A DNA stretch of 64,000 bases from Candidatus Zhuqueibacterota bacterium (GCA_024655945.1 JANLFK010000001.1:588116-652115), one strand, 5' to 3'. Shown: positions 4,209-49,387, counted from the first letter of the stretch. Program-made: numbers and translations. The notes: generated by a model not told the origin, from the letters alone.

Positions 4209-4233
4209 GATTTCCGGCGGCCGGGGAACGACC

Positions 4234-16797: not shown

Positions 16798-18749
16798 GTG
16801 CGAATTGAGAGTACGAGAAGCCCCCGACGTGCCAAACCTTCGGGCTTGGCCTGGGATGGAAGTTACTTGTGGTTGTGCGACATCAGCGAGAACACCGTGT
16901 GGAAGCTTAGCCGAACCGGCCAGGTGGCGGCCAGAATGTTTGTTCCCGGTACTTATCACACTGGTCTGGAATGGGACGGCCATTCTGCGTGGCTGGTGGA
17001 CGGCGAGGCTGAACTCATCTACGAACTGGACGGCTCTGGCAACACTCGGAACTTCTATCTGCCGCCGGGGACCTTTCCCAGGGATATTGCCTGGGACGGC
17101 AGTGATCTTTGGATTGCAGATGCTGACAACGACAGAATCTACAAGTTGAGAGGTCCCATCATGGGGCCTGAGCCGAGGGCTTCGTTCACGGTAACCCCAA
17201 CGTCCGGTTTCCTGGAGACCCTTTTCCTGGTTGACGCTTCCAGTTCACAAGACCAAGTTACTCCCCTCGCGGACCTCGAGGTTCGGTGGGATTGGGAAAA
17301 CGATGGGGCGTACGACACCGAATACTCCAAGGTCAAGACTGCAAACCATCAGTACGCCTCACCGGGAACCAAGACAATTAGGCTTGAGGTCAAGGATACG
17401 GACGGGTATACCGGCACGACAACAAGAAGCGTCTCAGTAAGCGCGAGGGCCCCTCAGGCTTTCAGCCTAGTTTCTCCGCGATCAGGTGATACCGTTAGAA
17501 CGTACCTGCCCTCATTCAAGTGGCGGACCGCGCGAGACGCTGACCCAGGAGATACGGTGCGCTATTTTGTTCAGTATTCGAAAAGCTCCTATTTCTCCAT
17601 CTTCGATACACTCGCAGCAGGCACCGACACCCCTGCTGCCGTACGTGATTCTTTGCAGCAATTACAGAGGTACTATTGGCGGGTGGAAGCGGTGGATCGC
17701 TGGGGAGCAAAGACCCTGAGCTCTCAAAGTTGGAATTTCCTGGTCGCAGACCTCACGCCCCCCTCTTTCACAATCGGTCTCCTGCAGAATCCCATAATCA
17801 CAGAGGATCTCGATCTGTACGCCATCCCCAACGAGACACTGGATCAGCGCGGGGTTCAGTGTACCGCCAACGGGATCCCTGTTCCTATGTCGGAGCTCGA
17901 CGCTGCGCGTCGAATCTATGTTGGTGATTACCAGCTCTCGGGGGAGCGGAAGACTGGTGGTCATCATGAGAGGCAAAGATGCGATATGGGGAAATGAAGG
18001 TGCCGACAGCCTGTCCATCTCGGTGCAGCTAGTCAAAACAGTACAGGGGGGGGACGATCGCTAGTCTCGATGGGGCCTTGCATGCACAGTTCCCCGCTGG
18101 TTGCCTTCCTTACGACGCTTACGTCTTGGTTCTACAAGCGAACCAGGAACCAGGACGGAGGGAAGGCCTCTGTAGAAGGACAATGGAAAGTGACACAGTC
18201 ATCGCCATTGGGACAAGCTACGGAATTGAGCCCGCAGGACTCCGGTTATCCGACTCTGTGCTGTTGGAGGCCAGTTACTCGGAGAGGGCCTTGGCAGACC
18301 TAGATGAGGAGAGACTAGAGCTTGCGATCAGAGAAAGTGACGGCTGGAGATCTCTCGGCGGTGTAGTGGACAAGAAGACTGACAGAGTGACCTTGCTGGT
18401 CGACCAGCTGGGAGAATACCGTCTGCAGTGGAATCAGAAACGTCGGACGTCAGGGAGTTTTCCTTCGCACTTGGTCCTTTTGCCAAACTACCCCAATCCG
18501 TTCAATCCGACCACTACCCTACATTATGGACTGCCTGAGCGATTTTCGGGCTGGGTGGAGCTGGGTATCTACGACGCCGCTGGGCGCGAAGTGTGTTGCC
18601 TGGTGGATGAGCCTCAGAACCCCGGGTATTATTCTGTCGTATGGGACGGGAGGGATAGCTCTGGTCGGCAGGTGCCAAGCGGAGTGTACTGTTGCCGTCT
18701 GCGGGCAAACAGGCTTTCCATTGCAAGAAAGATGATCTTCCTACGCTAA
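16798..18749 (+). pseudogene. T9SS-type surface protein (WDG beta-propeller blades + PKD domain + type-A C-terminal sorting domain), frame-disrupted and lacking an N-terminal signal
   Basis: Frame 1 16798-17997 (GLAWDGSYLWLCD, GLEWDGHSAWLVD, DIAWDGSDLWIAD; PKD-like WDWENDGAYD), switch to frame 2 near 17940-17960, then to frame 0 at the G8 run 18046-18053; frame 0 continues to the sorting domain LLPNYPNPFNPTTTLHY...GVYCCRL ending at 18749. Confidence 0.55.
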
Positions 18750-18778
18750 GTTGCTCAACACAAATGGAGGAATAGCCA

Positions 18779-19459
18779 ATGACAGCCTTCATGCTCAAAC
18801 AGTCGCCTGGACGTGCGGTGTTGATCTGCCTTGTCTGCGTCGTGGCCCTCGCTACCTGCAGCAAAGAGACACCCACGGCACCAAAGAAGGGTCCCGTTAC
18901 ATGGATTGCTGAGGGCTGGAGATACTTCGAGGCGAAGGACTTCGCCGAGGCAGTTAATTGCTTCAGCACTGCACTCAACATGAATCCAAGCGACAGCATC
19001 GCTGCAATCGCGCATTGCGGGTTGGGCTGGAGTCAGGCAAGGCAGCGCGCATACGAGGTAGCTCACAACAATTTCACTTTCTCGGTCCAGAAGGACTCCA
19101 CCACGCCCGGCCCATATGTTGCCGACTCTTACGCCGGCAGGGCTGCAACCTTCTTTCGAATGAACCTCTACAGTGAGGCAATTTCTGACGTGAAGAAGGC
19201 CCTGAGCAGTACCGGCACCTATGAATTCGTTCACGACCGGACAGTGAGATTCACTGACCTTCACTTCTTGATGGCCGAAGCCTACTACCACACTCGTCAG
19301 TACCAAATGGCACAGGAAAAAGTAGACTTCCTTCGTGCCTTGTTTGCTCTTCCTCCGATCAACTGGACTGTAGTCCCCTATATGGTTGATGGTTTGGGGT
19401 ATGGAACTTACCAGGAAGCTCTTCTCAAAGCGATCGAGGGACTTCGGAGCAGAGTGTAG
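18779..19459 (+). CDS. TPR-like repeat lipoprotein
   Basis: ATG at 18779 with GGAGGA upstream; signal peptide with lipobox-like LATCS; helical repeat content; lower GC than flanking genes; TAG stop. Confidence 0.7.
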   Translation: MTAFMLKQSPGRAVLICLVCVVALATCSKETPTAPKKGPVTWIAEGWRYFEAKDFAEAVNCFSTALNMNPSDSIAAIAHCGLGWSQARQRAYEVAHNNFTFSVQKDSTTPGPYVADSYAGRAATFFRMNLYSEAISDVKKALSSTGTYEFVHDRTVRFTDLHFLMAEAYYHTRQYQMAQEKVDFLRALFALPPINWTVVPYMVDGLGYGTYQEALLKAIEGLRSRV

Positions 19460-19843
19460 GTTGTCCTTCCGTAAGTCCAGAAGGGTAAACCCAAACAAGA
19501 CAAGGGGGGAAGGTGAAACGGGACTGGAGGACACAATCGCGGCGTCCGCGGTCACAGTGTGTCCGCGACAAACGGTTCCCCCGCACCTTTTCGATCAACC
19601 TTTGTCGAGCGTCTCGAGTGCGAGATTTGGTCGAGGGAACTCCGTCGGGAAAGGGACCACGTCTGATCGTGACTCAAAGGCCTTGGAATTGAGGCGAATC
19701 CGACCACGAACTAGGTCAACGATCGGAGATGGAGGAGCCCACAAGTGAGAGAACACCAAACTGCGCGTTGTCCGCGGGAATCGGTTTCCACGGTGGGCGC
19801 CCAGAGGACGAAGTCGTCACAACGTAACGTAAAGAGGCAAGCG

Positions 19844-21383
19844 ATGAGAGAACCCAGTGGTCCATTCCGTCTTTTGATCATTTTGCTGGTATTTGTTGGC
19901 ATTGGCGCCCACGCCGGAGAAATCCGCCCCGTGAGCCCGGCCACCGTCCTGGGGCAGGTGGGGGTCGAGTTCGACGTGTATGTGCGTGTGGATCAGGTAA
20001 GCAATCTCTTCGGGGTCAGTTTCGTTTTGACCTTGGACAACGGCTATCTGGAGGCGATTTCCGAAAACCCCGAGTCCTTCATGGGCAGTGACGTGGTATT
20101 TTTGGGCCAGCACAATAATGCCGCCGGCACAGTGGCCATCGGGATTTCCCGCAAAGCTGGGCAGGGAGGCGTCAGCGGCACAGGCAATGTCGCACGGGTG
20201 CGAGAGTTGTGCAAGGGGCCACGCAGGACAGAGTCCTCCGGTTCGGGCTCGCCTCCGTGGAAGCCATCGACCCCTTGGGCGCGTCGATTGTGCTCGCTCC
20301 AGGTGAAGCCACGACTACGCTGTCCAGGTTGGTCACGGTGTGGCCGGGCGATGCTGATGATAACGGCACTGTGAACATCTTCGACATTAACCCGATCGTT
20401 GCCAATCACTGGGGCCGGACGGGGCCGCAGCGGCCCAATGCCTCTGTAAACTGGACGGGCCAGGTATGCCCACCATGGACACCGCCTGACGCAACCTACC
20501 CGACACTAACGGCGACGGCCTGGTGAGCATTTTCGACATTAATGCCGTACCGGTCAACTTCGGCAAGACTCACCCCGGAACCGCCGGGGCCCCACTCCCG
20601 ACACCGGTGGAACCCCAGGTCGTTGCGCTTGGCAAGGAAAGCGGGGTCACCTCACCGCCCATCGCGGCAAAGGGCCCGCAGCAGGTAGACAAGAACCAGG
20701 AATTCTGGGTAGACATCGAGGTTGGAGCCTTAGGCAATCCCGTCACCAACCTCAAGGTGGTCTCTTTCGAACTGACCTACACGAACACTGCCATAGTTGA
20801 CTACCTCAGTTACGAGGTGGGACCTTTCTTGACGGGCGCGATAGCAACCGTGATTCCGGATGACCCCAACGGGAAGGTAAGCGCGTCGGTCTATCGAACC
20901 ACTGGCAGCAACTCCGGCTACGGGGTAGTCTTGCGGCTGAAGTTTCGCACAAGCGCACAGGCCGCAGCGGGGCAGACGGTAAGCTTTGCCTTCGCCCAGG
21001 TGCTAGCCAACAGGGAGGACGGTAGCGTTCAGCCCTTGTCGCCCATTGGTCAGGTGGTCACCATTCAACCTGGCAGCGGCATACGCGCTGACGACTTCAC
21101 GCCCACAGAGTTCGAGCTGGTGCAGAACTACCCCAACCCCTTCAATCCTGGGACGGTCATAGAGTACCGTCTCCCGCAGGCCAGCAGGGTGACGCTGCAA
21201 GTGTACAACTTGGCTGGAGTAAAGGTGGCCTCGCTGCGGGACGGGATGGAGAGTGCGGGTCGTCATTCGGTGGTCTGGGATGGCCGCGACGAAATGGGCA
21301 GGCCTGTTGCAGCGGGGGTATACATGTGCAGGCTGGTGGCCGGAACCTACGACAAGACCATCAGAATGCTGCTGCTCAGGTAG
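19844..21383 (+). pseudogene. cohesin-like / dockerin-like / cohesin-like protein with T9SS type-A sorting domain, carrying two frame disruptions
   Basis: ATG at 19844 (AAAGAGG upstream), signal MREPSGPFRLLIILLVFVGIGAHA; cohesin-like VSFVLTLDNGYLEAI; dockerin repeats GDADDNGTVNIFDINPIV (frame 1) and DTNGDGLVSIFDINAVPV (frame 0); second cohesin-like VVSFELTYTNTAIVDYL; C-terminus LVQNYPNPFNPGTVIEY...GVYMCRL. Reading requires frame 2 -> 1 -> 0. Confidence 0.55.
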
Positions 21384-21682: not shown

Positions 21683-23850
21683 TCACCACCCCACCTCCGC
21701 CACCGCCCGCCAGTGCCGGCCGGGCATGGGGTAGCCGGCGGCCACCTGGTACTGCACGTCGAAGAGGTTGTCCATTCCTGCCCGGAGGTGCCAGGTCACG
21801 CCCCAGAAGGGCACGCGCACGCCCACATTGGCATCGGCCACCGTGTGCGCAGGAAGGCGCCGCGTGTTGGCTTCGTCCGTGTAGCGCGACCCCACATAGG
21901 AGGCAGTGACATGGCCGTAGAACGGGCGACCCTGAAAACCAGCCCGCAACGAGGCCATGTGTTCCGGCCGGTAGATGAGCCGCTTGCCCTGAAGACCAGG
22001 TATGCCACCAGTATCTACCGCCCGCAGATGGCTGTAGTTCGCCTCAAGGATGAGGCGCTGCGCAAACCCCTCCCACTTGAGCCGCAGCTCCTGCCCCGTA
22101 ATCTCCGCCCTGCTCACATTGGCAGGCGACCACTTGTAACTCAGCGGGTCCATCCCCCAGACGATGAGGTCGCGGGCCCAGCGTCGGTACAAGCTGAGCT
22201 CGCCGTGCACGCGTCCGGCAGCCGGCACCCTCACGCTCAGCCCACCATCAATTTCCGTGGTCCGTTCCGGCTTCAGGTTGGGATTGCCCACGGTAAAGGC
22301 GTCCTCCGGCCAGTAGAGGTCGTTGAATGTCGGTGCGCGGAAGGAGCCACCCACATTGCCGCGTATCGCTACGTGGCTGTGCCGCACCCTGCTCAAAATT
22401 ATCCCCACCTTCGGACTGGTGACGAAACCAACCCCCTCGTAGTGGTCGATGCGCGCCGTCGGCAGAAGGTTGGCCTGCCACTCGGGGCGACCGAGCAAGC
22501 CTTTCCAGGCGGCATCGGCCTGGGCAAAGGCGCCGAAAGACTCCCGCGCGTGGGTACCCAACGAGGTACCTCGCGAGCGCTCGTTCAGATAGCTGGCCCC
22601 CAGGGACAGCACCTTGTCCTGTGCCAAGGGCAGGTCACCCTGCAAAGAGGCACCGGCGCTGACGCCTTTGTTGTCGGCATTCGACGGCCAGAAGGGATTG
22701 GGGTCAACATAGCGGGTGGCGAGCTCGTGCCGGAACCCTGTCGCCTGTACGTGCACCTTGCCGCCGAGGCTCGTCTCCACACCCAGCTGCACGCGGCGGC
22801 TGTCGTCGGTCTGCTTTGCCTCGGGACTCGGAAAGGCCAAGGATCCAGGCGCACCCCGCTCGGCATGGGACCACTCGCCGGAAAGGGTGAGGCGTGTGAG
22901 TGGAGAAGACTGCCAGCTCACCTTGCCGAAGAGTTCATCCATGGCAAACGAATTGTTGATGCGCCTGCTCTCCCTTTCCCTGTCCGTGGCTGGGTCCTTG
23001 GTGCGGTAAATAAAGTCGCCGTCGCTGCGGGCGCGGCTTGCGGCCACCAGCAGGCCGACATCGCCCTGCTGGTGACTTGCGCCAAAGTGCGCCGAGCGGC
23101 TGCCCCAAGAGCCCATGCCCGTGGCAAGCGACAGCTGAGGCCTCACTCCTCCCCGCGGCGCGCGTGTGATGATGTTCACCACGCCGGCGGCGGCATCCGC
23201 CCCATAGAGCGAGGAGAGCCCGCTACGCACAAATTCAATGCGCTCCACCGCAGTGAGCGGCAGCAGGCCGAGATCGTACCCCCCGGCTAACGGCGAATTG
23301 AGGCGCGCGCCATCCCAGAGGATGAGCACCTGTTCCGCCGAGGAGCCGCGCACCGACAGCGACTTCATGGCCGCATCCGAGCCATAGCTTTTCACAAAGG
23401 CCCCGGCCACAGGCCGCAAGGCATCAGCCACGGTGCTGCCGTTGACCATCTCTATGTCCGCGGCGGAGACCACCTCCGCCGACACGGGCAACTCCCAGCT
23501 CAGCGATCTGCCACGCTTGCCGGTGACCATCACTTCCTCAAGTTCAATGATGGTCGGCACCAGGCGCACGGACACCTGTTGGGCGCCGCGATCCGCAACG
23601 CGGAGCGTGAGCAGCTGCGGCGCATAGCCCATGTAGGAAACGCGAAGCTGGTACGTTCCTGCCCGCAGCTTGGGAAGCACGAAACGGCCCATTTCGTCGG
23701 TGGCGGCGCCCTGCCCGCCTGGCATAACACTGACGTTGGCGCCGGCGAGCGGTTTGCCGGTGGTGTGGTCCACCACCAGGCCGGTCACTTGCGCAAGGGC
23801 ACTCGAACAAAGGACCGCCACACAGAGGAGCGTCAGGAAAAGCGTCTTTT
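21683..23850 (-). CDS. btuB: TonB-dependent receptor (CarboxypepD_reg-like + plug + beta-barrel), probably cobalamin receptor BtuB-like
   Basis: ATG at 23850 with GGGAGG upstream; signal MKTQKTLFLTLLCVAVLCSSALAQ; plug motifs, C-terminal aromatic AVAEVGW; lies downstream of a cobalamin riboswitch. The btuB assignment is by context. Confidence 0.8.
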
Positions 23851-24421
23851 GCGTCTTCATCTTCGCCTCCCGTGGAACCCGGTTCACTGCTGTCTCTCTC
23901 CTACCTAACACTCCGATGGCCGCCGGCACCAGCAGCGCAAAGATTGCGGTGTTGACGGCGGCGTGGGTCAGGTAGAACACCGCCCCATAGGCGTAGGCTC
24001 CGAGCAAAGCCGGGAGGGTGAGCCGGGTCATCACGAGAAAGCCCACCGTGGTGAGAAAGTCGAAGGTCACCGTGAGGATGAAGCCGCTGGCCGCTAAAAC
24101 CAGCACTTGTGGCCAGTGGATTTTGTGCCGCCGCGCCCTCCTGCCGATCAGCCCCCCCACAAACCCCGCCAGGCCCATCCCCAAGACCTGGCTGACCAGC
24201 AGAGTGACAGAGGAGATGCCGTAGGGGTTGATGGCCGCGTAGAGAAGCTCGCCGACCATGGCCGTGGCCAGTCCTCGCCCGGCACCAAGGAAGGCGCCGG
24301 CGACAAAGGCAGTGGCGGTCACCAGCTCCACGTTGGGCACGCTGCTGAGCAGGTAGCCCAAGGCGACCATCAACCCGGCGAACATGGCCATGCTGGCCAA
24401 AGAAACGGTGCCCGGTCTCAC
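23851..24421 (-). CDS. ECF-transporter S-component-like small membrane protein (possibly cobalamin-specific); 3' end undefined
   Basis: Hydrophobic multi-TM translation MAMFAGLMVALGYLL...LLVPAAIGVLGRR; GTG at 24421 with GAGGAGGAA upstream (alternative ATG 24391); no stop codon before the btuB start, same frame. Confidence 0.55.
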
Positions 24422-24478
24422 GACCTCATTCCTCCTCTGCCATGCGCGAGCACTCCACCACGCGGCGGGCGGCGCCAA

Positions 24479-24514
24479 CAAAAAAACCCTGGCCTCCTCA
24501 AACAGACCAGGGTT
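24479..24514 (-). terminator. intrinsic terminator / riboswitch expression-platform hairpin
   Basis: Minus strand AACCCTGG-14 nt loop-CCAGGGTT followed by TTTTTTT; sits between the riboswitch aptamer and the RBS. Confidence 0.5.
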
Positions 24515-24569
24515 CGCACGTCGCGCACGCTACGCACCGACACCTCACCCGCGGAGGCTCACACGGTGA

Positions 24570-24760
24570 TACCGACTCCGGCAGGTTTCCTGGCTCTCCC
24601 GACCCTGGTCGCCTTCCCATCCAAGCTGCGGACAGTGGCACCGTTGACCAGGGCACCGGCGCATCGACTCATGCGCCCGGGATCACAGTAGCGGGGCTGC
24701 GACGGACTTGCACCGTCTTCCCTTTTCCTCCCCGGCGGGGAGCACCGGAATCTACGCCCA
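24570..24760 (-). promoter_or_regulatory. cobalamin (AdoCbl) riboswitch
   Basis: Minus strand reads AAGGGAAGACGGTGCAAGTCCGTCGCAGCCCCGCTACTGTGA ... GCCACTG ... GGGAAGGC ... AGCCAGGAAACCTGCC, matching the conserved core and B12 box of the cobalamin riboswitch family. Confidence 0.8.
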
Positions 24761-24783
24761 TATCGCCAAAGAGCGACGGTGCA

Positions 24784-27548: not shown

Positions 27549-29384
27549 TCAATCCACAAAGCTCCAGTTGACGCCCCAGGCAAAAAAGCGCGTGGGCATG
27601 GGATATCCCCAGGTGGTCTGGTACGCGCGCCCAAGAAGGTTTTCCATCCTCACCCAGATGACGGCGTTGTGCATGATCCGCGCCCTGGCTTCGGCGCCAG
27701 GGACGGCCACTGGTGGCAGCCTGTGCTCGCTCTCCGCGTCCCACCGCTGGCCAAGGAGCTGGCAGAAGAGTTGCGCGGTGACCTCGAGGTCGGAGTTGAA
27801 CAGGGAAAGGCCGTAACCTGCGGCCAGCCAGCCGTGCCAACTCGGCAGTTGCGGTAGGCGTTCGTCGCCAAGCACGGGGGACTGCGCCACGACCCAGCAG
27901 CGCAGGAAGGAACGCTTGACCGGCTCCCCGAAGAGGCTCGCCATCACTCCGGCCGACCGATGCCTTCCGGCCGCTTGCGTGAACAAGAGCGAGTCCCCTG
28001 AGGCTCCAAAACGCGCGTCTATCTCCCGTGCGCCGTGCCGCACAAAGCCGCCGACGTAGAACGCCGCGTGAGGGCCCTGGGACGACATGCCTGCCACCAC
28101 TCTGTGCACAGCCCACGGGCGAAGGCCCTGAGTGCCCCACACGCGCTGCCGGCCGTATCGCTCGGCAAAGCTGGGAAAAAAGACCTCGCGGCTGCCGTGC
28201 ACCTCCACCCAGGAATTTGTGCTCAGGCGCCGGACAACCTGGAGGGACGGGGCAAGAAAGAAGCGCGTATCCTGGCGCGCCATACCATCGCAAAGGAGCT
28301 GGAGGTGCCAGGACTTGCCAGGTTCGCTGCGCAAGCCGCACCGCAGGCTCCCCTCCACGTCCGTGTGGCCGGCCATAACCTCACTCTCCACCTGGGCATA
28401 GCGCACAAAGGCGCCCACGAGGCCGGCAGCCTTCTGCCCGCCCACGCTCGCCGATGACGCTAAGGTGAGGACATGGCTTTCTTCCTGCCAGCGCAGCCGC
28501 AATGGGTAGTCGTGAAACTCGCGCCGCAGGTCTGTGTGCACGATGCTTGCCGCGACGTCAACAGGGCGCCCAAGGGTGCCCCGCAGCGTGAGCGCGTGGT
28601 CTATCCTGCGATCTTTGCGCACCGGGTGGACCGCCATGCGCAGGGCGAGTTGGCGTTGGTCCGGCGTTTCCTCTGTCTGCGACTTTGTGAGGAGGGCCAC
28701 ATAGTTTGCCGAGCAGTTGTCCGCCAGTGCCGCGCTTGCGGTTGCCCTGATCCTTTGTGCATCATACTCCTGCCGCAGGGCAAAGCCCTCGAAGCCAGAG
28801 AGCAGGGCACCCGCCAACACGTCGGCCTTGGGGCTCACCTTCATGCCAAGGGCGACGTCCACGGCGTGTACGCCCCAGTCGCCGTTCTCATAGCCGACAT
28901 GGGAAAGTGGCCGCTGCCCGGTGTGACGGCGCGCTGTGCAGGAAAGCGTCCCCCCTGCCAGACCACGGGGCGTTCCCCACCCGGCAGCCGTGGCCTCGAG
29001 GCGGATCGCCGACAGCCAGTAGGTGGGAAGCATGTGCACATCAGCCGTGCCGGAGATGGGGTCGCGGAGGTCTAATCCGTCCACGAAGAGACCGGTCTCC
29101 CGCGGCGTACTCCCCAGCGCGGAAAAGGTCAGCCACTGGCCGGGTGCCCCTCTGTCGTGGAGAAAGATGAAAGGCAGCTCGGTCAGGACCTGTGCAGGCC
29201 TGGGGCGCAAGAGCGCCACCCCCTCGAGCGAGAGCGGCTGCCGCATCGGCAGGCTGTCCTGGGAAGCCACGGTCCCGGCCGCCCCACCCTGGGCTCCAGA
29301 ATCGGCAGACCACCCCAGCACCAGCAGTGTCACCAGAGCCCACAACGGCACGGTCCACATGGGCATTTGGACGCGGCTCATCAT
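27549..29384 (-). CDS. TonB-dependent receptor-like outer-membrane protein (plug + barrel)
   Basis: ATG at 29384 with AAGGGGAG upstream; signal MMSRVQMPMWTVPLWALVTLLVLGWSADSGAQ; plug-like GLFVDGLDLRDPISGTADVHMLP; C-terminus FAWGVNWSFVD. Confidence 0.65.
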   Translation of the reverse strand: MMSRVQMPMWTVPLWALVTLLVLGWSADSGAQGGAAGTVASQDSLPMRQPLSLEGVALLRPRPAQVLTELPFIFLHDRGAPGQWLTFSALGSTPRETGLFVDGLDLRDPISGTADVHMLPTYWLSAIRLEATAAGWGTPRGLAGGTLSCTARRHTGQRPLSHVGYENGDWGVHAVDVALGMKVSPKADVLAGALLSGFEGFALRQEYDAQRIRATASAALADNCSANYVALLTKSQTEETPDQRQLALRMAVHPVRKDRRIDHALTLRGTLGRPVDVAASIVHTDLRREFHDYPLRLRWQEESHVLTLASSASVGGQKAAGLVGAFVRYAQVESEVMAGHTDVEGSLRCGLRSEPGKSWHLQLLCDGMARQDTRFFLAPSLQVVRRLSTNSWVEVHGSREVFFPSFAERYGRQRVWGTQGLRPWAVHRVVAGMSSQGPHAAFYVGGFVRHGAREIDARFGASGDSLLFTQAAGRHRSAGVMASLFGEPVKRSFLRCWVVAQSPVLGDERLPQLPSWHGWLAAGYGLSLFNSDLEVTAQLFCQLLGQRWDAESEHRLPPVAVPGAEARARIMHNAVIWVRMENLLGRAYQTTWGYPMPTRFFAWGVNWSFVD

Positions 29385-30430
29385 GCGCGCTCCCCTTTTG
29401 GCGAAGTGGCAAGCTGCCCGCATGCCGCTTGGATGTCGTCCCCCTTGCTACAGCGCACGATGACCGGCGCCTTCAAGGGTGCTAGCCCCTGCCGAAATGC
29501 CTCAATGCGCGCGGCGGTCGGCCGGCGGAAGAGCTCATCGGTGGGATTGTAGGGGATGAGGTTCACCTTGCAGGGCACCTGCTTCAGCAAGTCGCGCAGA
29601 CGCTTAGCGTCCTCGGCCGAGTCGTTTACCCCTGCCAAGAGCACGTACTCGAAGGTCGGTCTGCGACCTGAGCGGCGGTGGTAGAAAATCACCGCGTTGA
29701 GGAGCTCCTGCAGCGGATAGCGCTCTGCCACCGGCATGAGCGCCCGGCGTTGTTCGTCAGTGGTGGCATTGAGGGAAATCGCCAGCTTGAAGCGGTGCCC
29801 CTCTTCGGCCAGCCTCATGATCCCGGGCACCCAGCCAGCGGTGGAAATGACGATGCGCCGATGGCCGATGGCTATGCCGCGCTCATGGCGCACAAGCTCG
29901 CAGGCAGCAATCACCTTATCATAGTTGAGCAGCGGCTCGCCCATGCCCATGAGCACCAGGTTGCTCACCTCCTCCCCGACCTCGCGCTCGACGAGCAGCA
30001 CCTGGTCAACAATCTCCCCTGCCGACAGGTTGCGACGGAAACCCAGGCGTCCGGTGGCGCAGAAACGGCACCCTAAGGCGCAACCGACCTGCGTGGAAAC
30101 ACAGAGGGTGTGGCGCCCTGCCTCGCGAATGTACACGCTTTCGATGCGCTCGCCATCGCCGAGCTCGAACAAGAACTTGCGCGTGCCTCCGTCCCGTGAG
30201 GATACCACCGCCACAATCTTCAGGAGGCCAATCTCGGCAACTTCGGCCAGGCGCAGCCGCAAAGGCTTAGAGATGTCGGTCATTTCGGCAAAGTCGCGCG
30301 CTCGCTTGTTGTAGAGCCAAGCGAACAGCTGCCGCCCGCGGAAAGGCTTCTCGCCTATGCTGGAGGCAAACTGCTCCAGCTCCTCCATGCTCATGCCGAC
30401 AAGTTGTCTCTTGCCTGGCTCAGTCTCCAT
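29381..30430 (-). CDS. rlmN: 23S rRNA (adenine2503-C2)-methyltransferase RlmN (radical SAM)
   Basis: CX3CX2C radical-SAM motif GCALGCRFCATG, LVLMGMGEPLLNYD, 349 aa; 4-bp overlap with the downstream gene. Confidence 0.9.
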   Translation of the reverse strand: METEPGKRQLVGMSMEELEQFASSIGEKPFRGRQLFAWLYNKRARDFAEMTDISKPLRLRLAEVAEIGLLKIVAVVSSRDGGTRKFLFELGDGERIESVYIREAGRHTLCVSTQVGCALGCRFCATGRLGFRRNLSAGEIVDQVLLVEREVGEEVSNLVLMGMGEPLLNYDKVIAACELVRHERGIAIGHRRIVISTAGWVPGIMRLAEEGHRFKLAISLNATTDEQRRALMPVAERYPLQELLNAVIFYHRRSGRRPTFEYVLLAGVNDSAEDAKRLRDLLKQVPCKVNLIPYNPTDELFRRPTAARIEAFRQGLAPLKAPVIVRCSKGDDIQAACGQLATSPKGERA

Positions 30431-30505
30431 CAGCAGTTCCTCTCAGTCCCGCAATTGCTCAGGGGCAAATTTACGCAAATGGCGTGGCCTGCGCAAGGAA
30501 AAACG

Positions 30506-30534
30506 TTGACAATTGCGGCGAAAAATGATAACTT
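30506..30534 (+). promoter_or_regulatory. sigma-70-like promoter upstream of the MoxR operon (TTGACA-17-TAACTT, extended TG)
   Basis: TTGACA at 30506-30511, spacer 17 nt, TGATAACTT at 30526-30534; 36 nt upstream of the ATG at 30570. Confidence 0.35.
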
Positions 30535-30569
30535 AAACGAGCCCTATGACGACATGCGAAGGAGAACCT

Positions 30570-31574
30570 ATGGCCCTTGCGCAACCCCAAAAAGGCGACT
30601 TGGAGATTGTCGAGCAGCTTAAGGAAGCGCACGACCGCATTACTAGAGAAATTGGCAAGGTCATTGTCGGTCAGCGGCAGGTCATCGACGAGCTGCTGAT
30701 TTCGTTGCTGTCGCGCGGGCACTGCCTGCTCATCGGCGTGCCCGGCTTAGCCAAGACGCTGCTCATCAGCACGCTGGCGCGGGTGCTGAACCTGTCCTTT
30801 TCGCGTATCCAGTTCACCCCGGACCTGATGCCCTCCGACATCACCGGCACCGAAGTTATTGAGGAGGACGTGAGCACGGGGCGGAAGACCTTCAAGTTCG
30901 TGCGCGGACCGGTATTTGCCAACATCGTGCTGGCCGACGAGGTGAACCGGACGCCGCCCAAGACGCAGGCGGCCCTGCTGCAAGCCATGCAGGAGCACGA
31001 GGTCTCGGTGGCCGGGCAAACCTACAAGCTCGATGAACCCTTCTTCGTGCTTGCCACCCAGAACCCCATCGAGCAAGAGGGTACCTATCCGCTGCCGGAG
31101 GCGCAGCTTGACCGGTTTATGTTCAGCCTGTGGGTCGACTATCCCGCCGCCGAGGAGGAGGAGCAGATTGTACGTTCCACCACCAGTGCCTACGCCGCGC
31201 AACTGCACAAGGTTCTGGAGGCGCAGGAAATTGTTGCCCTGCAGGACCTGGTGCGGCGCGTGCCGGTGGCCGATGCGGTGATTCACTATGCAGTCGAGCT
31301 GGTGCGCAAGACTCGCCCCAACCACGACGGCGCGCCGCAGTTTATTCGCGACTGGATTAGCTGGGGAGCGGGACCGCGCGCCTCCCAATACCTCATCCTC
31401 GGCGCCAAGACGCGCGCCATCCTGGACGGTCGGCCTACCCCGGACATTGCCGACGTGCGGGCGGTGACCCTGCCCGTGCTCCGCCATCGCCTGGTGACCA
31501 ATTTCAACGCCGAGGCCGATGGCGTAGGCACCGAGGAGATTATCCGCCGCCTTCTGGACACCACCGGAGCATGA
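30570..31574 (+). CDS. MoxR-family AAA+ ATPase
   Basis: Walker A GVPGLAKT, Walker B ADEVNR, sensor VLATQNP; ATG at 30570 with AAGGAG six nt upstream. Confidence 0.9.
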
Positions 31575-32488
31575 CCACGATGCCGCGCGCGGCGCAAGAC
31601 TACCGCCGATTCCTGCAGCCAGAAGTGGTGTCTAAGCTGGCGTCGATGGACCTGCGCGCCCGCCTTGTGGTGGAAGGCTTTATCGCCGGCCTGCACCGCA
31701 GCCCGTACCACGGCTTCAGCGTAGAGTTCGCCGAGTACCGCCAGTACATGCCCGGCGACGAGGTCAAGCACATCGACTGGAAGGTCTACGGCCGCACCGA
31801 CCGCTTCTACGTCAAGGAATTCGAGGAAGAGACTAACCTCAAGTGCTATCTGCTCCTGGACGCCTCTGGCTCCATGGGCTATGCCTCCGGGCCGCTCACC
31901 AAGCTGCAATACGCCAGCTACTTAGCAGCCGCCCTCACCTACCTGATGCTCCAGCAACGGGACGCTGTCGGGCTGGTGACTTTTGACCAGAAGATTCGCA
32001 CCTTTGTGCCGCCGCGCTCGGTGTCCAGCTACCTGCACGTGATTCTACGCCAGTTGGACCGGATGCGCAGCCGCAGCAGAACCAACGTGGCCGCCACACT
32101 CCATGAGTTGGCCGAGAGGATCAAGCGCCGCGGCCTCATCATCCTCTTCTCTGACCTATTCGACGAGCCCAGCGAAGTGCTGGCTGGCCTGCAGCACTTT
32201 CGCCACCGCAAACACGAGGTCATCGTCTTTCACATTCTCGACCCGCTGGAACGCACGTTTAGCTTCCGGCAGGACGGCCTTTTCAAAGACCTCGAGACGG
32301 ACGAGACCATCAGCACCCAGCCGTGGCACATCCGCGGGGAGTATCGGGCGCTGGTGGAGCAGTTCCTCGACACCTACCGCCGCGGCTGCCGCCAGCATCG
32401 CATCGACTATGTGCTGATGGACACGGCCGCCTCGTACGACCGCGCCCTCTTGCAGTACTTGCTGAAACGACAGCGCGTGGGCGGCTGA
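31571..32488 (+). CDS. DUF58 domain protein (MoxR partner, vWA-like)
   Basis: Start overlaps the MoxR stop (ATGA); motifs [25 protein letters not shown]. Confidence 0.85.
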
Positions 32489-32534
32489 TAGAAAACCGCA
32501 CGGCCGGGACAGTCTGCAACCGCTGGTGAAACCC

Positions 32535-35471
32535 ATGAGCAGCAAGACCGTGGACGACATCCTCAATGCATTGAATGCCGAACAACGCGAAGCGGTGACC
32601 TTCGGCGAGGGACCCCTGATGGTGGTGGCCGGTGCAGGCACTGGCAAGACGCGCGTCATCACGCATCGCATTGCCTACCTGATCGCCACCAAGCAGGCCC
32701 GTCCGGAGGAGATCTTGGCGCTCACCTTCACCGACAAGGCCGCCGCGGAGATGGAAGAGCGCGTGGACGTGCTGGTGCCCTATGGCTTTGCCAATGTGTG
32801 GATCAGCACCTTCCACTCCTTCGGCGACCACCTGCTGCGCCAATACGCCTTTGAGTTGGGTCTACCTCCCGACTTTCAAGTCCTTGCCGAAGCAGAGCAG
32901 AACATCTTCTTCTGCCAGCACCTTTTCGCCTATCCGCTGGATTTCTACCGGCCGCTGGGCAACCCGACCCGTTTCCTCTCCGCGCTCCTCTCGCTGTTCA
33001 GCCGAGCAAAGGACGAAGACGTCAGCCCTGAAGAGTATCTGGCCTACGCCGAACGGCTGCAGAGCGAGGCTGCGGCCCATCCAGAGGACGGCGAGCTTCA
33101 GGAGGAGGCGGCGCGGCAGATGGAGCTGGCGCGCACCTATGCCTGTCATCAGCGCCTGTTGGCCGAAAATGGCAAAATCGACTTTGGCGACCAGGTGAGC
33201 CTCGCCCTCAAACTGCTGCGCGAGCGTCCTGCCGTGCTACGAGAATTACGGCAGCGCTACCGGTACATCCTGGTGGATGAGTTTCAGGACACCAACTATG
33301 CGCAGTTTGTGCTCCTGCAACTTCTGGCCGGGTCGCACGGCAACATCACCGTGGTGGCCGACGATGACCAGTCCATCTACAAGTTCCGGGGTGCGGCAAT
33401 CAGCAACGTCATCAATTTCTTGCGCACCTACCCCGACGCCCGCCTGGTGGTGCTGAGGGAGAACTATCGCTCCACCCAGCAGATTCTGGATGCGGCCTAT
33501 CGCCTCATCAGCCACAACAACCCCGAGCGCCTGGAGGTGCAGCGCGGCATCAGCAAGCAGCTGCGGGCGCAGCGCGCCGGCGGGCCTGCAGTCATGCACC
33601 GCCATTTCGACAGCCTCTCCACTGAAGCAGACGCGGTGGCGAGCATCATCGAGCAGAAGATGCAGGCAGGTGGTTACTGCTATCGCGACTTTGCCATTCT
33701 CGTGCGCGCCAACAACCACGCCGATCCCTTCCTGCGCTCGCTGAACATGAAGGGCATCCCATACCAGTTCAGCGGTAGCCGTGGGCTCTACAGCCGCGAA
33801 GAGGTGCGCCTGCTGACCCACTTCTTGCGCACCCTGAGCAATCCCGACGATGTGGTGAGCCTTTTCCACTTAGCGCAATCTGAGGTGTACCAGTTCCCGC
33901 CTGTGGAGTTGGCGCGCTGCAACAGCTATGCTCATGCCAGGAACCTGTCGCTCTTCCAGGTCTTTGAGAGCCTGCCACGGCTCGCCGACCTGGTCGTCTC
34001 TCCGGAGGCGCAGGCCACCGCCGCCAAGATTGTGGAGAACACGCACAAATTCTTGGAATTTGCTCGCACGAATAACGCCGGCGTGGTGCTGTACCGATTT
34101 CTGACCGACAGCGGTCTGTTGAAACGGCTGACCAGCGCGCAGACCGTGGACGCAGAGGTGCAGCTTCTCAACATCGCGCGCTTTTTCGAGATTGTGCGCA
34201 GCTTCTGCGCCATGGCCACCGAGGACCGCGTCCAGGAGTTCGTCACGCACTTGGACGCCCTCATCGAGGCGGGCGACGACCCGCCCACCGCGCAGGCCGA
34301 CACCGACTTGGACGCCGTGAACGTGCTCACAGTGCACAAGGCCAAGGGGTTGGAGTTCCGCGCCGTGTTTCTGGTGGGACTGGTGCAGGACCATTTCCCG
34401 ACGCGCGCCAGGTCGGAGGCCCTCGCCTTGCCCAAGGAGTTGATCAAAGACATTGTGCCGGAAGGGGACGTGCACTTGCAGGAGGAGCGCCGCCTCTTCT
34501 TCGTCGGCATGACGCGCGCCAAGGAAGAGCTCTACCTCACCAGCGCACGCGACTATGGCGGCAAGCGCCCGCGCAAAATCAGCCAGTTCGTGCTGGAGGC
34601 CTTGGACACCGTGCGCGCCGACGACAGCTACGAGCGCCCATCTCCCATAGAGGTGATCCAGCGCCACGCACCAGCAGCGCAGACCACTCCCGACTTGGCC
34701 GCGCCCATCCCCGAGGACCAGCTCCTCACCATAAGCCATAGGCAGATTGACGACTACATTACCTGCCCGCTCAAGTACAAGTACATCCACGTGCTGCGCG
34801 TGCCTCTGTTGCCGCACCACACCATCGTCTACGGGCAAGCCATTCACAAGGCCATCGAGCAGTACCATCGGCGCAAGGTGGCCGGCCAGCCGGTGACCCT
34901 GCAAGACCTGCACGAGGCGTTTCGCAGCGCCTGGAGTAGCCAGGGGTTCTTGTCGCGAGAGCACGAGGAGCAACGGTTCGCCGCCGGCCTCAAGGCCCTA
35001 GAGCTCTTCTTCCACCAGGAGGAGGAAAACGGTTGCACGCCGGCCCTGGTGGAACAGGAGTTCAGCTTCATCCTGGACAACGACCGGGTAACGGGCCGCT
35101 GGGACCGAGTGGACGTTCGCGATGGGGCCGTGTACATCGTCGACTTCAAGTCGTCGGCAGTGCAGGACCAGGACAAGGCCAACGAAGAGGCAAGAAAGAG
35201 CCTGCAGCTGGGGATCTACGCCTTGGGCTATCGCGAAGTGAACGCCCGCACTCCAGATTTCATCGAGCACCGCTACGTGGAGAGCGGGATCACCGGGCGA
35301 GCTGCCGTGACCGACAAGTTGCTGGCCAAGGCCACCGAGAAGATTAAGATTGCAGCCCGCGGCATTCGGCAGCGGCACTACACCGCCCAGCCGGACGAGT
35401 ACACCTGCCCCTACTGCGCCTACAGCCAGATCTGTCCGGCCACGTCGAGCAGTTACCTCATCACCGAGTGA
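32535..35471 (+). CDS. UvrD/PcrA-family SF1 helicase fused to C-terminal Cas4/RecB-like PD-(D/E)xK nuclease with a Cys cluster
   Basis: Walker A AGAGTGKT, helicase motifs LTFT, VDEFQDT, YRST; C-terminal ITCPLKYKY ... YIVDFKSS ... CPYCAYSQICP (four Cys, Fe-S-type). Confidence 0.85.
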   Translation: MSSKTVDDILNALNAEQREAVTFGEGPLMVVAGAGTGKTRVITHRIAYLIATKQARPEEILALTFTDKAAAEMEERVDVLVPYGFANVWISTFHSFGDHLLRQYAFELGLPPDFQVLAEAEQNIFFCQHLFAYPLDFYRPLGNPTRFLSALLSLFSRAKDEDVSPEEYLAYAERLQSEAAAHPEDGELQEEAARQMELARTYACHQRLLAENGKIDFGDQVSLALKLLRERPAVLRELRQRYRYILVDEFQDTNYAQFVLLQLLAGSHGNITVVADDDQSIYKFRGAAISNVINFLRTYPDARLVVLRENYRSTQQILDAAYRLISHNNPERLEVQRGISKQLRAQRAGGPAVMHRHFDSLSTEADAVASIIEQKMQAGGYCYRDFAILVRANNHADPFLRSLNMKGIPYQFSGSRGLYSREEVRLLTHFLRTLSNPDDVVSLFHLAQSEVYQFPPVELARCNSYAHARNLSLFQVFESLPRLADLVVSPEAQATAAKIVENTHKFLEFARTNNAGVVLYRFLTDSGLLKRLTSAQTVDAEVQLLNIARFFEIVRSFCAMATEDRVQEFVTHLDALIEAGDDPPTAQADTDLDAVNVLTVHKAKGLEFRAVFLVGLVQDHFPTRARSEALALPKELIKDIVPEGDVHLQEERRLFFVGMTRAKEELYLTSARDYGGKRPRKISQFVLEALDTVRADDSYERPSPIEVIQRHAPAAQTTPDLAAPIPEDQLLTISHRQIDDYITCPLKYKYIHVLRVPLLPHHTIVYGQAIHKAIEQYHRRKVAGQPVTLQDLHEAFRSAWSSQGFLSREHEEQRFAAGLKALELFFHQEEENGCTPALVEQEFSFILDNDRVTGRWDRVDVRDGAVYIVDFKSSAVQDQDKANEEARKSLQLGIYALGYREVNARTPDFIEHRYVESGITGRAAVTDKLLAKATEKIKIAARGIRQRHYTAQPDEYTCPYCAYSQICPATSSSYLITE

Positions 35472-35476
35472 GGATC

Positions 35477-36514
35477 ATGTCCACCGCTTCCCTGCTCCTT
35501 TTTGCCGCCATGACGCTGGCCGTCATCGCCACCTTGGGCATCATGCACGCACGCCAGGAGCGGCGCTGGCGGGAATTCGAGAAGCGCCACCCGGATGCCC
35601 CCGCCTTGAGCGTCATTACCCAGTGGCTGCAGGACATGCGCGGCAGCTTAGAACGGAGCACGGCGGTCATGCAGCAGCAGATGCAGGCCACCCAGCGCAG
35701 CATCGCCGAGCGCCTGGATGCCGCGGCCCAGGCGCTGAGCATGGTGCATCACGACTTGGGGCAGATGCAAGAAATCGGCCGGCAGATGCGGGAGTTTCAG
35801 GACTTTTTCCGTTCCCCCAAGCTGCGCGGCAATATCGGCGAGCAGGTATTGCGCGAGCTACTGGAGCAGGTGCTCCCCCGCGCCTGCTTTCGCTTGCAGC
35901 ATCGCTTTGCCAACGGGCAGGTGGTGGACGCAGTCATCGTCAGCGACAAAGGGCTGATCCCCATCGACGCCAAGTTTCCGCTGGAAGACTACCGACAGAT
36001 GCGCGCTGCCCGCAGCGAAGACGAACGCGCCGTGTTTGCGCGGAACTTTGTACGCACCATCCGCCGCCACATCGACACCATCAGCGAAAAGTACATCGCC
36101 CCTGCCGAGGGGACGGTCGATTTTGCACTCATGTACGTGCCTTCCGAGGTCGTCTACTACGAGATCATCGCCGGCGACTACTCCCTGCTGGCGCATGCGC
36201 AGCAGCGGCGCGTGGTGGTGGTCTCGCCCAACAGCTTCTACCTCTTTCTCCACGTGGTGCTGATGGGCTTAGAAGGACAGCGCATCGAGGAGACTGCGCG
36301 ACGCATCCTCCAGGCCCTGGACGCGCTCCGCCACGATGCCGGACGCCTTGGCGAGGGTTTGCGCCTGCTCAATACGCACGTCAACAACGCTCGCGCCGCC
36401 CTGGAGCGGGTCAACAACGACTTTGCGCTACTCACCAGCAAGATCGAGGGAATGCGCCAGTTGCGCCCGGGGGAGGATCATGCACAAGCCAAGCTGCCTG
36501 GCGAGGGCGTGTGA
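35477..36514 (+). CDS. rmuC: DNA recombination protein RmuC
   Basis: N-terminal TM, coiled coil, RmuC-type core GLIPIDAKFPLEDY, VVVVSPNSFYLFL; ATG at 35477 six nt after the helicase stop. Confidence 0.85.
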   Translation: MSTASLLLFAAMTLAVIATLGIMHARQERRWREFEKRHPDAPALSVITQWLQDMRGSLERSTAVMQQQMQATQRSIAERLDAAAQALSMVHHDLGQMQEIGRQMREFQDFFRSPKLRGNIGEQVLRELLEQVLPRACFRLQHRFANGQVVDAVIVSDKGLIPIDAKFPLEDYRQMRAARSEDERAVFARNFVRTIRRHIDTISEKYIAPAEGTVDFALMYVPSEVVYYEIIAGDYSLLAHAQQRRVVVVSPNSFYLFLHVVLMGLEGQRIEETARRILQALDALRHDAGRLGEGLRLLNTHVNNARAALERVNNDFALLTSKIEGMRQLRPGEDHAQAKLPGEGV

Positions 36515-36564
36515 GCCGCTCCTGGACAGGGGCCGCGCGGTAGCCGGTTCACGGAAAAAGAAAA

Positions 36565-36584
36565 GCCCGTCGCTGCCGACGGGC
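36565..36584. terminator. bidirectional rho-independent terminator
   Basis: GCCCGTCG-ctgc-CGACGGGC; the minus strand follows with TTTTCTTTTTCC, the plus strand with a weaker T-rich tail; between convergent rmuC and the small secreted-protein gene. Confidence 0.55.
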
Positions 36585-36610
36585 TCATTGTTCTCGGTTG
36601 AGGATGTTGC

Positions 36611-37027
36611 TCAGCGGAACATCGCCTTGATGCTCCCCCAGGTGTGGCGGACGCTGGAAATTTGCGGCGACACCGACACCACCTTGTCGTAATACGCAAA
36701 GCTGCCGTCGAAATCGACCAGCTTCAAGCGATAGTAATAGGTGTTGCCGGTGGACTTGAAGACCGTGCGATCCTCGTAGGCATAGTCCCGCGGCGAGGAA
36801 GAATTTCCCGCCGCCTCGACGAAGACAATCGCCTGGAAGCTCTTGCCATCCAGGCCACGTTCGATTTCAAAACCCTTGAGATTGGACTCGGCAGCAGTAG
36901 TCCAGCGGAGGGTGACCTTGTTCAGCCCAGGCTCCGCCTCGAAGCGGGAGATGACCGCACCCCCCAAAAGGGCCCTTAGCGAGCCAAATGTGACCAGCAC
37001 AACTATCGCGACTCGGCTCATACCCAC
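36611..37027 (-). CDS. small secreted beta-sandwich-like protein (hypothetical)
   Basis: Signal MSRVAIVVLVTFGSLRALLGGA; beta-rich translation with Fn3-like pattern; start at GTG 37027 or ATG 37021. Confidence 0.5.
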   Translation of the reverse strand: MGMSRVAIVVLVTFGSLRALLGGAVISRFEAEPGLNKVTLRWTTAAESNLKGFEIERGLDGKSFQAIVFVEAAGNSSSPRDYAYEDRTVFKSTGNTYYYRLKLVDFDGSFAYYDKVVSVSPQISSVRHTWGSIKAMFR

Positions 37028-48960: not shown

Positions 48961-49344
48961 TTACTGCTGGCCGCGATTCTGCTGGGGCCGCGCCGAGCGC
49001 ACCAGGCGACTCAGCATCCGGCCCACCTCCTCGCCGAGATTCCAGAGCGCCTCAAACTCCTTGAGCAATCCCAAGTCGCGCGCCAGGATGAGGTAGTAGC
49101 GGGCACGCTCCAAGGCTGACAGGCTCTCGCTGTAGAGGCGCAGCTTTTCCGGCTGGATCCTGCAGCGGAACCCTGCGGCAATGTTGGCCGGCACGGCGGC
49201 AATCGCCTTGCGCAGCTCCGCAGCCAGGCCGTCGCGTTCTTCCTTGGGGAATTTCTTCGTGGCTCTGAATATCTCCAAAGTGAGTTGGTGGCTCCTTTGC
49301 CACACAACCAGGTCGTGGAAAGTAATCCTCTTTTCTTGTTCCAT
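48961..49344 (-). CDS. four-helix-bundle protein (23S rRNA intervening-sequence protein family)
   Basis: MEQEKRITFHDLVVWQRSHQLTLEIFRATKKFPKEERDGLAAELRKAIAAVPANIAAGF...; start at internal ATG 49344. Confidence 0.7.
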   Translation of the reverse strand: MEQEKRITFHDLVVWQRSHQLTLEIFRATKKFPKEERDGLAAELRKAIAAVPANIAAGFRCRIQPEKLRLYSESLSALERARYYLILARDLGLLKEFEALWNLGEEVGRMLSRLVRSARPQQNRGQQ

Positions 49345-49387
49345 GCTTGTTGCCTTTCGGTTGAGGAGGCCCCCGCAGAAGCTTCCG

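Follow-up and report, generated by a model that had tools for sequence, protein, structure and literature searches.

The closest described relatives of the enzyme at the centre of this study are the UvrD-Cas4 fusion proteins. These form the largest branch of pfam12705, a branch reported as monophyletic in a computational study (Hudaiberdiev et al. 2017, PMC5704561). They were found with type III restriction-modification (RM) genes or with Dcm/Vsr genes, or in stand-alone and non-conserved contexts, and a RecB/AddB-like nuclease role was proposed for them (PMC5704561). Our literature search returned no biochemical work on these fusions beyond that 2017 computational paper. Here we describe a fusion of this kind in a stretch of 64,000 nucleotides (nt) from Candidatus Zhuqueibacterota bacterium (GCA_024655945.1, JANLFK010000001.1:588116-652115; hereafter the window), a metagenome-assembled genome (MAG) of the KSB1 lineage. 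Its gene is the third of a tight block of four plus-strand genes at 30570-36514, in the order moxR, DUF58, helicase-nuclease and rmuC. We consider it fairly probable that three self-sufficient housekeeping modules (MoxR-DUF58, the helicase-nuclease and RmuC) came to lie together in this block recently and only in this lineage; they are probably co-transcribed.

Other described systems resemble single parts of the block. AdnAB of mycobacteria and AddAB of Bacillus, motor-nucleases that resect double-strand breaks, likewise join a UvrD-like superfamily 1A (SF1A) motor and a C-terminal RecB-family nuclease in one chain. The RmuC protein holds down the frequency of inversion at short inverted repeats, and cleavage of the secondary structures concerned is its predicted activity; the architecture of its family is an N-terminal transmembrane helix followed by a PD-(D/E)xK nuclease (PMC1189080). 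Our search of the literature found nothing specific on RmuC together with UvrD. Another RmuC-domain protein, ShdA of the Shield system, degrades DNA and mediates phage defence, and has been reported only in Pseudomonas (PMC10270631). Finally, the Bat or aerotolerance-type operons share with this locus a MoxR ATPase directly followed by a DUF58/vWA protein with a metal ion-dependent adhesion site (MIDAS).

The first-pass annotation of this DNA had described four co-directional, tightly spaced genes with the domains named above, and both the open reading frames (ORFs) and Pfam agree with it. The block opens with a MoxR-class AAA+ ATPase of the AAA_3/MRP type (30570..31574, + strand, 334 aa; Pfam AAA_3 1.2e-63, AAA_lid_2 2.1e-13). 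Its start was set at ATG 30570, with AGGAG 6 nt upstream, and the 334 aa length is the one called in the related loci L081 and L082. Its stop overlaps the start of the DUF58 gene in an ATGA at 31571-31574, where the overlap had already been placed. The DUF58 protein (31571..32488, + strand, 305 aa) has a vWA fold (Pfam DUF58 4.4e-51, VWA_2 6.8e-11). The single-chain helicase-nuclease gene (32535..35471, + strand) follows after 46 nt, counted to ATG 32535. From this ATG the protein has 978 aa, as in the database, and from an alternative GTG at 32526 it has 981 aa; the length of 979 aa given earlier needs correction. Residue numbers of this protein are counted below from GTG 32526. The last gene, for an RmuC-family protein (35477..36514, + strand, 345 aa), is separated by 5 nt from the end of the helicase stop at 35471, as read from the junction sequence, and not by 6 nt as first reported.

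In terms of transcription signals, there is no terminator-like site between any of the four genes. The divergent intergenic region between rlmN (-) and moxR (+), at 30431..30569, contains TTGACA at 30507-30512 and the AGGAG ribosome-binding site, and presumably holds the block promoter. A consensus scan gave no full sigma-70 match on the + strand upstream of moxR, and KSB1 promoters may deviate from consensus. At the other end, a GC-rich 10-bp hairpin (36563..36586) lies between the convergent rmuC (+) and a 138-aa ORF (-). The T-run is weaker on the + strand than on the - strand, where it is clear, and the hairpin is likely a bidirectional terminator that closes the transcription unit. The four genes probably form one such unit in the window lineage. 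Four closely packed co-directional genes are not statistically unusual for a bacterial chromosome.

The age of this arrangement was read from 113 loci with the fused helicase, of which 88 are near-full-length and fall into 69 lineages at 80% identity. A first scan, of genome contigs by full-length alignment, had given 80 loci, mostly plain UvrD/PcrA paralogues with about 25 true fusions. The second scan, of metagenomes, used a profile of the nuclease domain alone, chosen because generic UvrD motifs had misled the first. Of the 56 lineages with sufficient upstream flank, 4 have MoxR-DUF58 no more than 5 kb from the helicase; none was found within that distance in the other 52. All four linked lineages belong to one KSB1 clade of the neighbour-joining helicase tree.

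Within this clade the gene order varies. The window, L081 and L082 have moxR-DUF58-helicase-rmuC directly abutting, and in the latter two, with helicases 84% and 78% identical to that of the window, the whole neighbourhood is kept from rlmN through asparaginase. L086 has one additional gene, for a HAMP protein, between DUF58 and helicase-rmuC. In L176 the order is rlmN (-), a toxin-antitoxin (TA) pair, moxR-DUF58-HAMP kinase (+), a parA-like gene (-), the helicase (+) and a 139-aa ORF (-), with no rmuC. L177 has moxR-DUF58 (+), a parA-like gene (-), and then the helicase followed by sbcD-like and sbcC-like (AAA_23) genes (+). The HAMP protein of L086 (4477-5985) is a full-length, 26%-identical homologue of the HAMP kinase of L176 (3406-4977); its phospho-acceptor histidine is lost (SHEIKNPL changed to SLEVSNLL) and no kinase domains scored.

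The linkage, whose conservation had been proposed as a check, is thus kept in close relatives (78-84% identical helicases) and is interrupted or absent deeper in the family, and the tight block therefore came about when intervening genes were lost. Ancestrally there was no operon, because an opposite-strand parA-like gene stands between the modules in L176 and L177. The simplest history would have MoxR-DUF58, with or without the HAMP kinase, and the helicase as neighbours across a reverse-strand gene, later joined by deletions. Such a history speaks against a functional coupling of MoxR-DUF58 to the DNA enzymes having been selected. As a "system" the four genes are not conserved.

The 138-aa ORF of the window (36611-37027, - strand), which is convergent to the block and has no Pfam match, is an orthologue (50% identity) of the ORF directly 3' of the helicase in L176. 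RmuC was either inserted in the window lineage or lost in L176. We also observed ORFs of 136-140 aa similarly placed 3' of the helicase in L081-L083, and this ORF is a steadier helicase neighbour than RmuC in the window clade. As for the 5' boundary, the divergent order of rlmN and moxR is kept in L081, L082, L086, L175 and L176. This boundary seems tolerant of insertions: in L176 an MJ0235/TumE toxin-antitoxin-like pair (162-892) is inserted between rlmN and moxR, and in L175, from Calditrichota, a Cas6 gene (3590-4573) adjoins rlmN.

The MoxR-DUF58 pair has a history of its own. MoxR retains intact motifs in its translation (Walker A GVPGLAKT, Walker B LADEV), and DUF58, which is identical to the NCBI protein MDH7559095.1, retains the MIDAS motif DASGS. 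Orthologues of DUF58 with 70-75% identity are widespread in KSB1 and Calditrichota. In L173 such an orthologue (70-75%) is followed by a HAMP kinase and then by an opposite-strand parA-like gene, with no helicase. In L175, where the divergent rlmN is kept, a Na/Ca exchanger follows MoxR-DUF58, again with no helicase, and L174 has the DUF58 orthologue without an adjacent MoxR. KSB1 and Calditrichota share MoxR-DUF58 as a conserved unit, oriented divergently to rlmN, and MoxR-DUF58-HAMP kinase may be the real conserved three-gene unit of KSB1. Unlike the Bat operons, the window pair has no BatA/BatB-type membrane vWA genes on its 3' side, where the next gene is the helicase, and no BatA/B-type vWA gene was found downstream of MoxR-DUF58 in the related loci examined either. 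The usual 3' gene in the KSB1 lineage is instead the HAMP histidine kinase, lost in the window. The MoxR protein scores 213 bits against AAA_3 and 41 bits against bpMoxR (PF20030), and Pfam revealed no beta-propeller gene of the MoxR-vWA-beta-propeller ternary conflict systems within the four-gene block. MoxR/vWA pairs mature metalloenzymes, for example NorQ/NorD.

The helicase-nuclease is identical to the NCBI protein MDH7559096.1, which, like MDH7559095.1, comes from a MAG contig of some 760 kb. It combines a PcrA/UvrD-type SF1A core with a C-terminal PD-(D/E)xK nuclease of Cas4/AddB/AdnA type (Pfam UvrD-helicase, PF00580, 7e-77; UvrD_C, PF13361, 2.2e-48; PDDEXK_1, PF12705, 6.9e-31); the match to Cas_Cas4 is just under the Pfam cut-off. 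The helicase core (UvrD-helicase plus UvrD_C) was placed at 32571..34547 (+) by Pfam and alignment. Walker A AGAGTGKT (G36-T42), motif II DEFQD (D251-D255) and the other SF1 motifs are invariant in 27 homologues. For residues ~10-700 the best match in sequence and structure is PcrA/UvrD/Rep, with all helicase motifs conserved; a search of PDB sequences gave PcrA at 3e-98. The full-length AlphaFold2 model (predicted local distance difference test, pLDDT, 80.6) matches UvrD/PcrA in its core by Foldseek, at 30-33% identity. In contrast to these helicases, the window protein carries an additional nuclease domain of 250 aa and falls below all equivalog cut-offs of NCBIfam (PcrA TIGR01073, 4e-139 and 465 bits against a cut-off of 911; TIGR01075, 368 bits against 1144).

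The nuclease domain (PDDEXK_1) was placed at 34731..35438 (+) by Pfam, alignment and a domain model. Residues D860, D873, K875, Q894 and Y898 are invariant in the 27-sequence alignment, and so are the four cysteines, C747 and C961-x2-C964-x5-C970. The peptides ITCPLKYKY and CPYCAYSQICP, from which the first-pass annotation had recognised these cysteines, are present in the translation. The pattern is that of the iron-sulfur (Fe-S) binding nucleases Cas4, AddB and Dna2, and would point to Fe-S binding here. Searched against PDB sequences, a profile of the C-terminal 257 residues matched the AdnB nuclease (3.8e-8) and that of AdnA (9e-5). The model of the domain (pLDDT 87.7, predicted TM-score 0.84) has the AdnA nuclease as best structural match (TM 0.70), followed by the Argonaute-associated Cas4-family protein ACE1, AddB, Dna2, RecE and type I-C Cas4. 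Both the profile search and the fold (AdnB/AdnA, AddB, Cas4) therefore bear out the Cas4/AddB-like C-terminus proposed at the outset.

In terms of distribution, helicase homologues at 55-62% identity carry the source labels KSB1, Calditrichota, Deltaproteobacteria, Armatimonadota, Firmicutes and NC10. With sequences clustered at 50% identity, the nuclease-domain profile retrieved 665 cluster representatives at E<=1e-30, and 4,222 at the looser E<=1e-10. Complete proteins among the best 150 matches are about 945-1000 aa long, with the domain at the C-terminus. In the closest genome-contig relative, L001 (8393-12543), the last ~50 helicase codons are repeated about 1 kb 3', at 12391-12543. The helicase gene is intact there, and a 122-aa ORF lies between the gene and the repeat, which may stem from an insertion that duplicated its target or from an artefact of assembly.

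On its architecture, an N-terminal UvrD-like SF1 helicase with a C-terminal four-cysteine, Cas4-like PD-(D/E)xK domain, the 978-aa protein would belong to the UvrD-Cas4 fusion family, as an added member of a family already described computationally. It differs from the published cases (PMC5704561) in its context. The conserved type III Mod/Res and Dcm/Vsr contexts are absent at the window locus, and the sampled subfamily is chromosomal, highly conserved and found beside rmuC, sbcCD and recJ. AdnAB and AddAB are related in another way. By sequence as well as fold, the AdnB and AdnA nucleases come nearest to the nuclease domain, AddB next, and only AddA, AdnA/B and RecB align with the full-length model in Foldseek. 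Those enzymes, however, are obligate heterodimers made from adjacent genes, whereas the window enzyme is a single chain: no second helicase-like nuclease subunit (AddB, AdnA, RecC/RecD) was found among the annotated ORFs about 10 kb to either side. The helicase core also shares more identity with PcrA/UvrD (30-33%) than with AddA/AdnB (18-24%). We considered the protein as an AddA with its AddB encoded elsewhere, and rejected this as the primary reading on account of the PcrA/UvrD-like core and of the listed loci, where no partner is adjacent.

The RmuC protein matches the Pfam family RmuC (PF02646) at 1.7e-53, with 182 bits against a cut-off of 26. Its translation shows an N-terminal hydrophobic helix, LLLFAAMTLAVIATLGIM, and the PD-(D/E)xK core motif IPIDAKFP; a putative coiled-coil region was read by eye. 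It shares the RmuC domain, the hydrophobic helix and the nuclease motif with E. coli RmuC (COG1322/PF02646), but it has 345 aa where that protein has 475, and scores 33 bits against an equivalog cut-off of 810. By these scores it is a distant family member and not an equivalog of E. coli RmuC.

As for the genes found beside the helicase elsewhere, clustering of flanking ORFs gave no family common to more than about 11 of the 113 loci. RmuC is adjacent in five lineages: the window clade, L086, L106, the Saccharibacteria locus L012, and L167/L169, where the two genes are convergent. The two genes are 4 to 441 nt apart. L020, an incomplete locus outside the 69 lineages, adds a case with rmuC upstream. 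SbcD/SbcC lies immediately 3' of the helicase in six lineages from several clades, RecJ lies upstream in ten lineages, all of one clade, and RuvX with YceG lies upstream in L088. SbcCD cleaves hairpins. Chance would give roughly 0.1 adjacencies per 100 genomes for one gene among about 3000, a rough expectation that was not computed. Because of this low figure, five or six independent RmuC adjacencies are meaningful, within what is a sample and not a census. The recurrence of RmuC, SbcCD, RecJ and RuvX points to recombinational repair for the helicase-nuclease, and is a modest hint of joint action with RmuC and SbcCD. The comparative support for a shared repair role is limited to the helicase-nuclease/RmuC part of the block: the DNA repair module suggested in the first-pass annotation stands for that half, through its recurrent repair neighbours, and not for the MoxR-DUF58 half.

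We propose the following roles for the three modules. The first, MoxR with DUF58/vWA, would be a chaperone-like AAA+ ATPase with a MIDAS-bearing adaptor, and an unrelated passenger in the block. In the second, the PcrA/UvrD-type motor would move 3'-to-5' on single-stranded DNA and present a strand to the C-terminal Cas4/AdnA/AddB-like nuclease, by feeding it in or laying it bare; a four-cysteine iron-sulfur cluster would stabilise this nuclease. The helicase-nuclease would then be a one-polypeptide enzyme for processing DNA ends or gaps, analogous to half of AddAB or AdnAB. The third module, RmuC, would be anchored in the membrane and would cut, as a PD-(D/E)xK nuclease, secondary structures at inverted repeats. 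It is plausible that one recombinational-repair pathway uses both this protein and the helicase-nuclease, with a structure-specific cut followed by end processing. In this scheme we infer the physical or pathway link between the two proteins, the specificity of the nuclease, the polarity of translocation, the Fe-S binding and the co-transcription. A further version, in which the helicase-nuclease with RmuC (or with SbcCD or RecJ elsewhere) forms an undescribed, single-chain AddAB-like pathway for breaks at DNA secondary structures, is one we hold only tentatively.

Several points weigh against a block of independent modules with a repair pair at its end. The operon-like spacing (4-nt overlap, 46 nt, 5 nt) is kept at 78-84% helicase identity. 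Co-transcription is likely on this layout, and some co-regulation of MoxR-DUF58 with the DNA enzymes would follow from it. By analogy with the known maturation of metalloenzymes, the helicase, with its predicted Fe-S cluster, could conceivably be a client of MoxR/vWA. The relatives were sampled from at most 600 candidate stretches per scan and are not a census, and the helicase tree is a simple neighbour-joining tree with no support values. Lastly, RmuC is adjacent in only about 8% of lineages (5 of ~62).

This last fraction, along with the varying gap and orientation of the RmuC genes and the lack of any neighbour shared by more than some 11 of the 113 loci, would suit an explanation in which all adjacencies, that of helicase and RmuC included, are accidents of gene order and the four genes serve unrelated processes. 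We find this doubtful. RmuC adjacency arose in at least five independent lineages, one of them a Saccharibacteria MAG (L012), above the rough chance estimate, and the other recurrent neighbours are likewise nucleases acting on DNA ends or structures.

A role in defence was the other suggestion of the first-pass annotation, which raised an anti-phage or anti-plasmid system and a possible defence island. The surroundings do not fit it. The window holds selB, a C2-domain protein, tRNA-Sec, secreted hydrolases, a sensor kinase, a sigma-54 activator and a B12 riboswitch with a TonB receptor, as well as a beta-lactamase-fold protein, rlmN, a sigma-70 factor, an M23 peptidase, a TPR protein, asparaginase and transporters. 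The block lies in ordinary housekeeping chromosome of a KSB1 MAG, and not in a defence island. PADLOC gave no match for MoxR and DUF58 and only generic domain matches for the helicase and RmuC (GajB, the reverse-transcriptase-associated helicase RTasHel and the reverse-transcriptase-associated RmuC, RTasRmuC). The ten neighbour proteins had no system-specific match, with generic similarities of sigma-70 to MzaA and of an alpha/beta hydrolase to a TAP-like candidate. The sigma factor as an MzaA defence component was rejected, the similarity being one of sigma domains.

Gabija and Shield share with the block the families of UvrD-like helicase (GajB) and RmuC (ShdA) domains. The window block differs from them, with no ShdA-specific architecture, ShdB-E, GajA or defence island. 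The OLD-family nuclease GajA had no match in the 14 proteins scanned with PADLOC. Shield had no match in the same 14 proteins with PADLOC v2, a version that may predate Shield. No reverse-transcriptase domain was found in the block or its flanks. Membership in Gabija or DRT was rejected, the matches being to accessory or generic domains only, with neither GajA nor reverse transcriptase.

Mobile elements gave a similar picture. On viral contigs the helicase had no close relatives, with a single weak partial match (30% identity over 80 residues), and thus gave no evidence for a phage origin. A tblastn search of plasmids also found no close relatives, and full-length fusions there are at most 30% identical. 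Two alphaproteobacterial plasmids, L179 (5395-11780) and L180 (5437-11725), carry distant fusions of about 1,120-1,150 aa with 28% identity. Their conserved cassette consists of a sigma-like helix-turn-helix protein, a hypothetical protein, the helicase-nuclease, two small hypotheticals, an MPN/JAB-family gene and a ThiF-like E1; the MPN/JAB-family label is present only in L180, the counterpart in L179 being annotated as hypothetical. We take this plasmid cassette to be a probable conflict system, which fits the defence contexts of the 2017 UvrD-Cas4 study. The plasmid fusions were rejected as members of the window subfamily, being distant and in a different cassette.

We therefore regard as improbable that the helicase-nuclease and RmuC form a two-gene anti-phage or anti-plasmid system, akin to Shield, Gabija-type UvrD or the UvrD-Cas4 of defence contexts. 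Such a system would be in line with the RmuC-domain protein ShdA, which defends Pseudomonas against phage (PMC10270631), with the ancillary role predicted for UvrD-Cas4 in type III RM and Dcm/Vsr loci (PMC5704561), with the matches to the GajB and DRT-RmuC models, and with the plasmid fusions, whose conflict-type cassette was judged from general knowledge. Against it stand the generic nature of those matches, with GajA, reverse transcriptase and ShdB-E all absent, the housekeeping flanks, the viral and plasmid results above, and the repair genes sbcCD, recJ and ruvX as the other recurrent neighbours. The subfamily is also 55-62% identical across differently labelled phyla at a fixed length. 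High cross-phylum conservation with fixed length is atypical for defence genes. The evidence favours the "ordinary housekeeping" option, which the first-pass annotation had allowed for.

Very improbable is a single system of all four genes, in which MoxR-DUF58 remodels, loads or matures the Fe-S helicase-nuclease together with RmuC, for repair or defence: the operon-like spacing with no internal terminators, the order kept in L081 and L082 (and in L086 with one additional gene) and the established maturation of metalloenzymes by MoxR/vWA pairs speak for it, but the proximity is confined to one clade and missing in 52 of 56 lineages, the opposite-strand parA-like gene separates the modules in L176 and L177, orthologous MoxR-DUF58 pairs occur without the helicase, and PADLOC is blank for both proteins. 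That MoxR-DUF58 was recruited as a remodeller or Fe-S maturation factor, making a four-component DNA-processing or anti-invader machine of an undescribed kind, we consider very improbable as well.

Some other features of the window were observed. On the rlmN side of the block, a protein of 624 aa (27549-29423, -) matches nothing in Pfam or PADLOC, and its gene overlaps the start of rlmN; L081 and L082 have its counterpart upstream of rlmN as well (610 aa and no Pfam match in L082). The selenocysteine locus consists of selB (2064-4208), a 268-aa C2-domain protein (PF00168, E 3.5e-13) and tRNA-Sec (5062-5156). The C2 domain is rare in bacteria, and a C2-domain gene inside such a locus is unusual. 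Downstream of the sigma-54 activator (14190-15563), the G+C content dips to about 0.55 at 15600-20500. Several small proteins with PKD, FlgD_ig, TPR and cohesin domains, taken as secreted, are encoded there, and these genes may be a sigma-54-controlled surface or secretion set. The gene for a TonB-dependent receptor of 932 aa (region 21683-24764, -) is preceded by a cobalamin riboswitch (24563-24764, 99 bits). The receptor, likely involved in B12 uptake, has CarboxypepD_reg and Plug domains and, at its N-terminus, a weak ECF-transporter-like match. Lastly, at 48961-49434 (-), the "23S rRNA-intervening sequence protein" family (PF05635, 1.6e-21) has a member of 157 aa, whose gene sits between an M49 peptidase gene and a DUF5686/CarboxypepD_reg gene.

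Taken as a juxtaposition of three modules, the block illustrates that tight operon-like spacing can come from deletion of intervening genes and is poor evidence of a functional system. The UvrD-Cas4 fusion helicases are a very large family, with no experimental characterisation in the literature searched. Cooperation of the helicase-nuclease with RmuC in the repair of structure-induced breaks would be a testable hypothesis for two poorly understood proteins.

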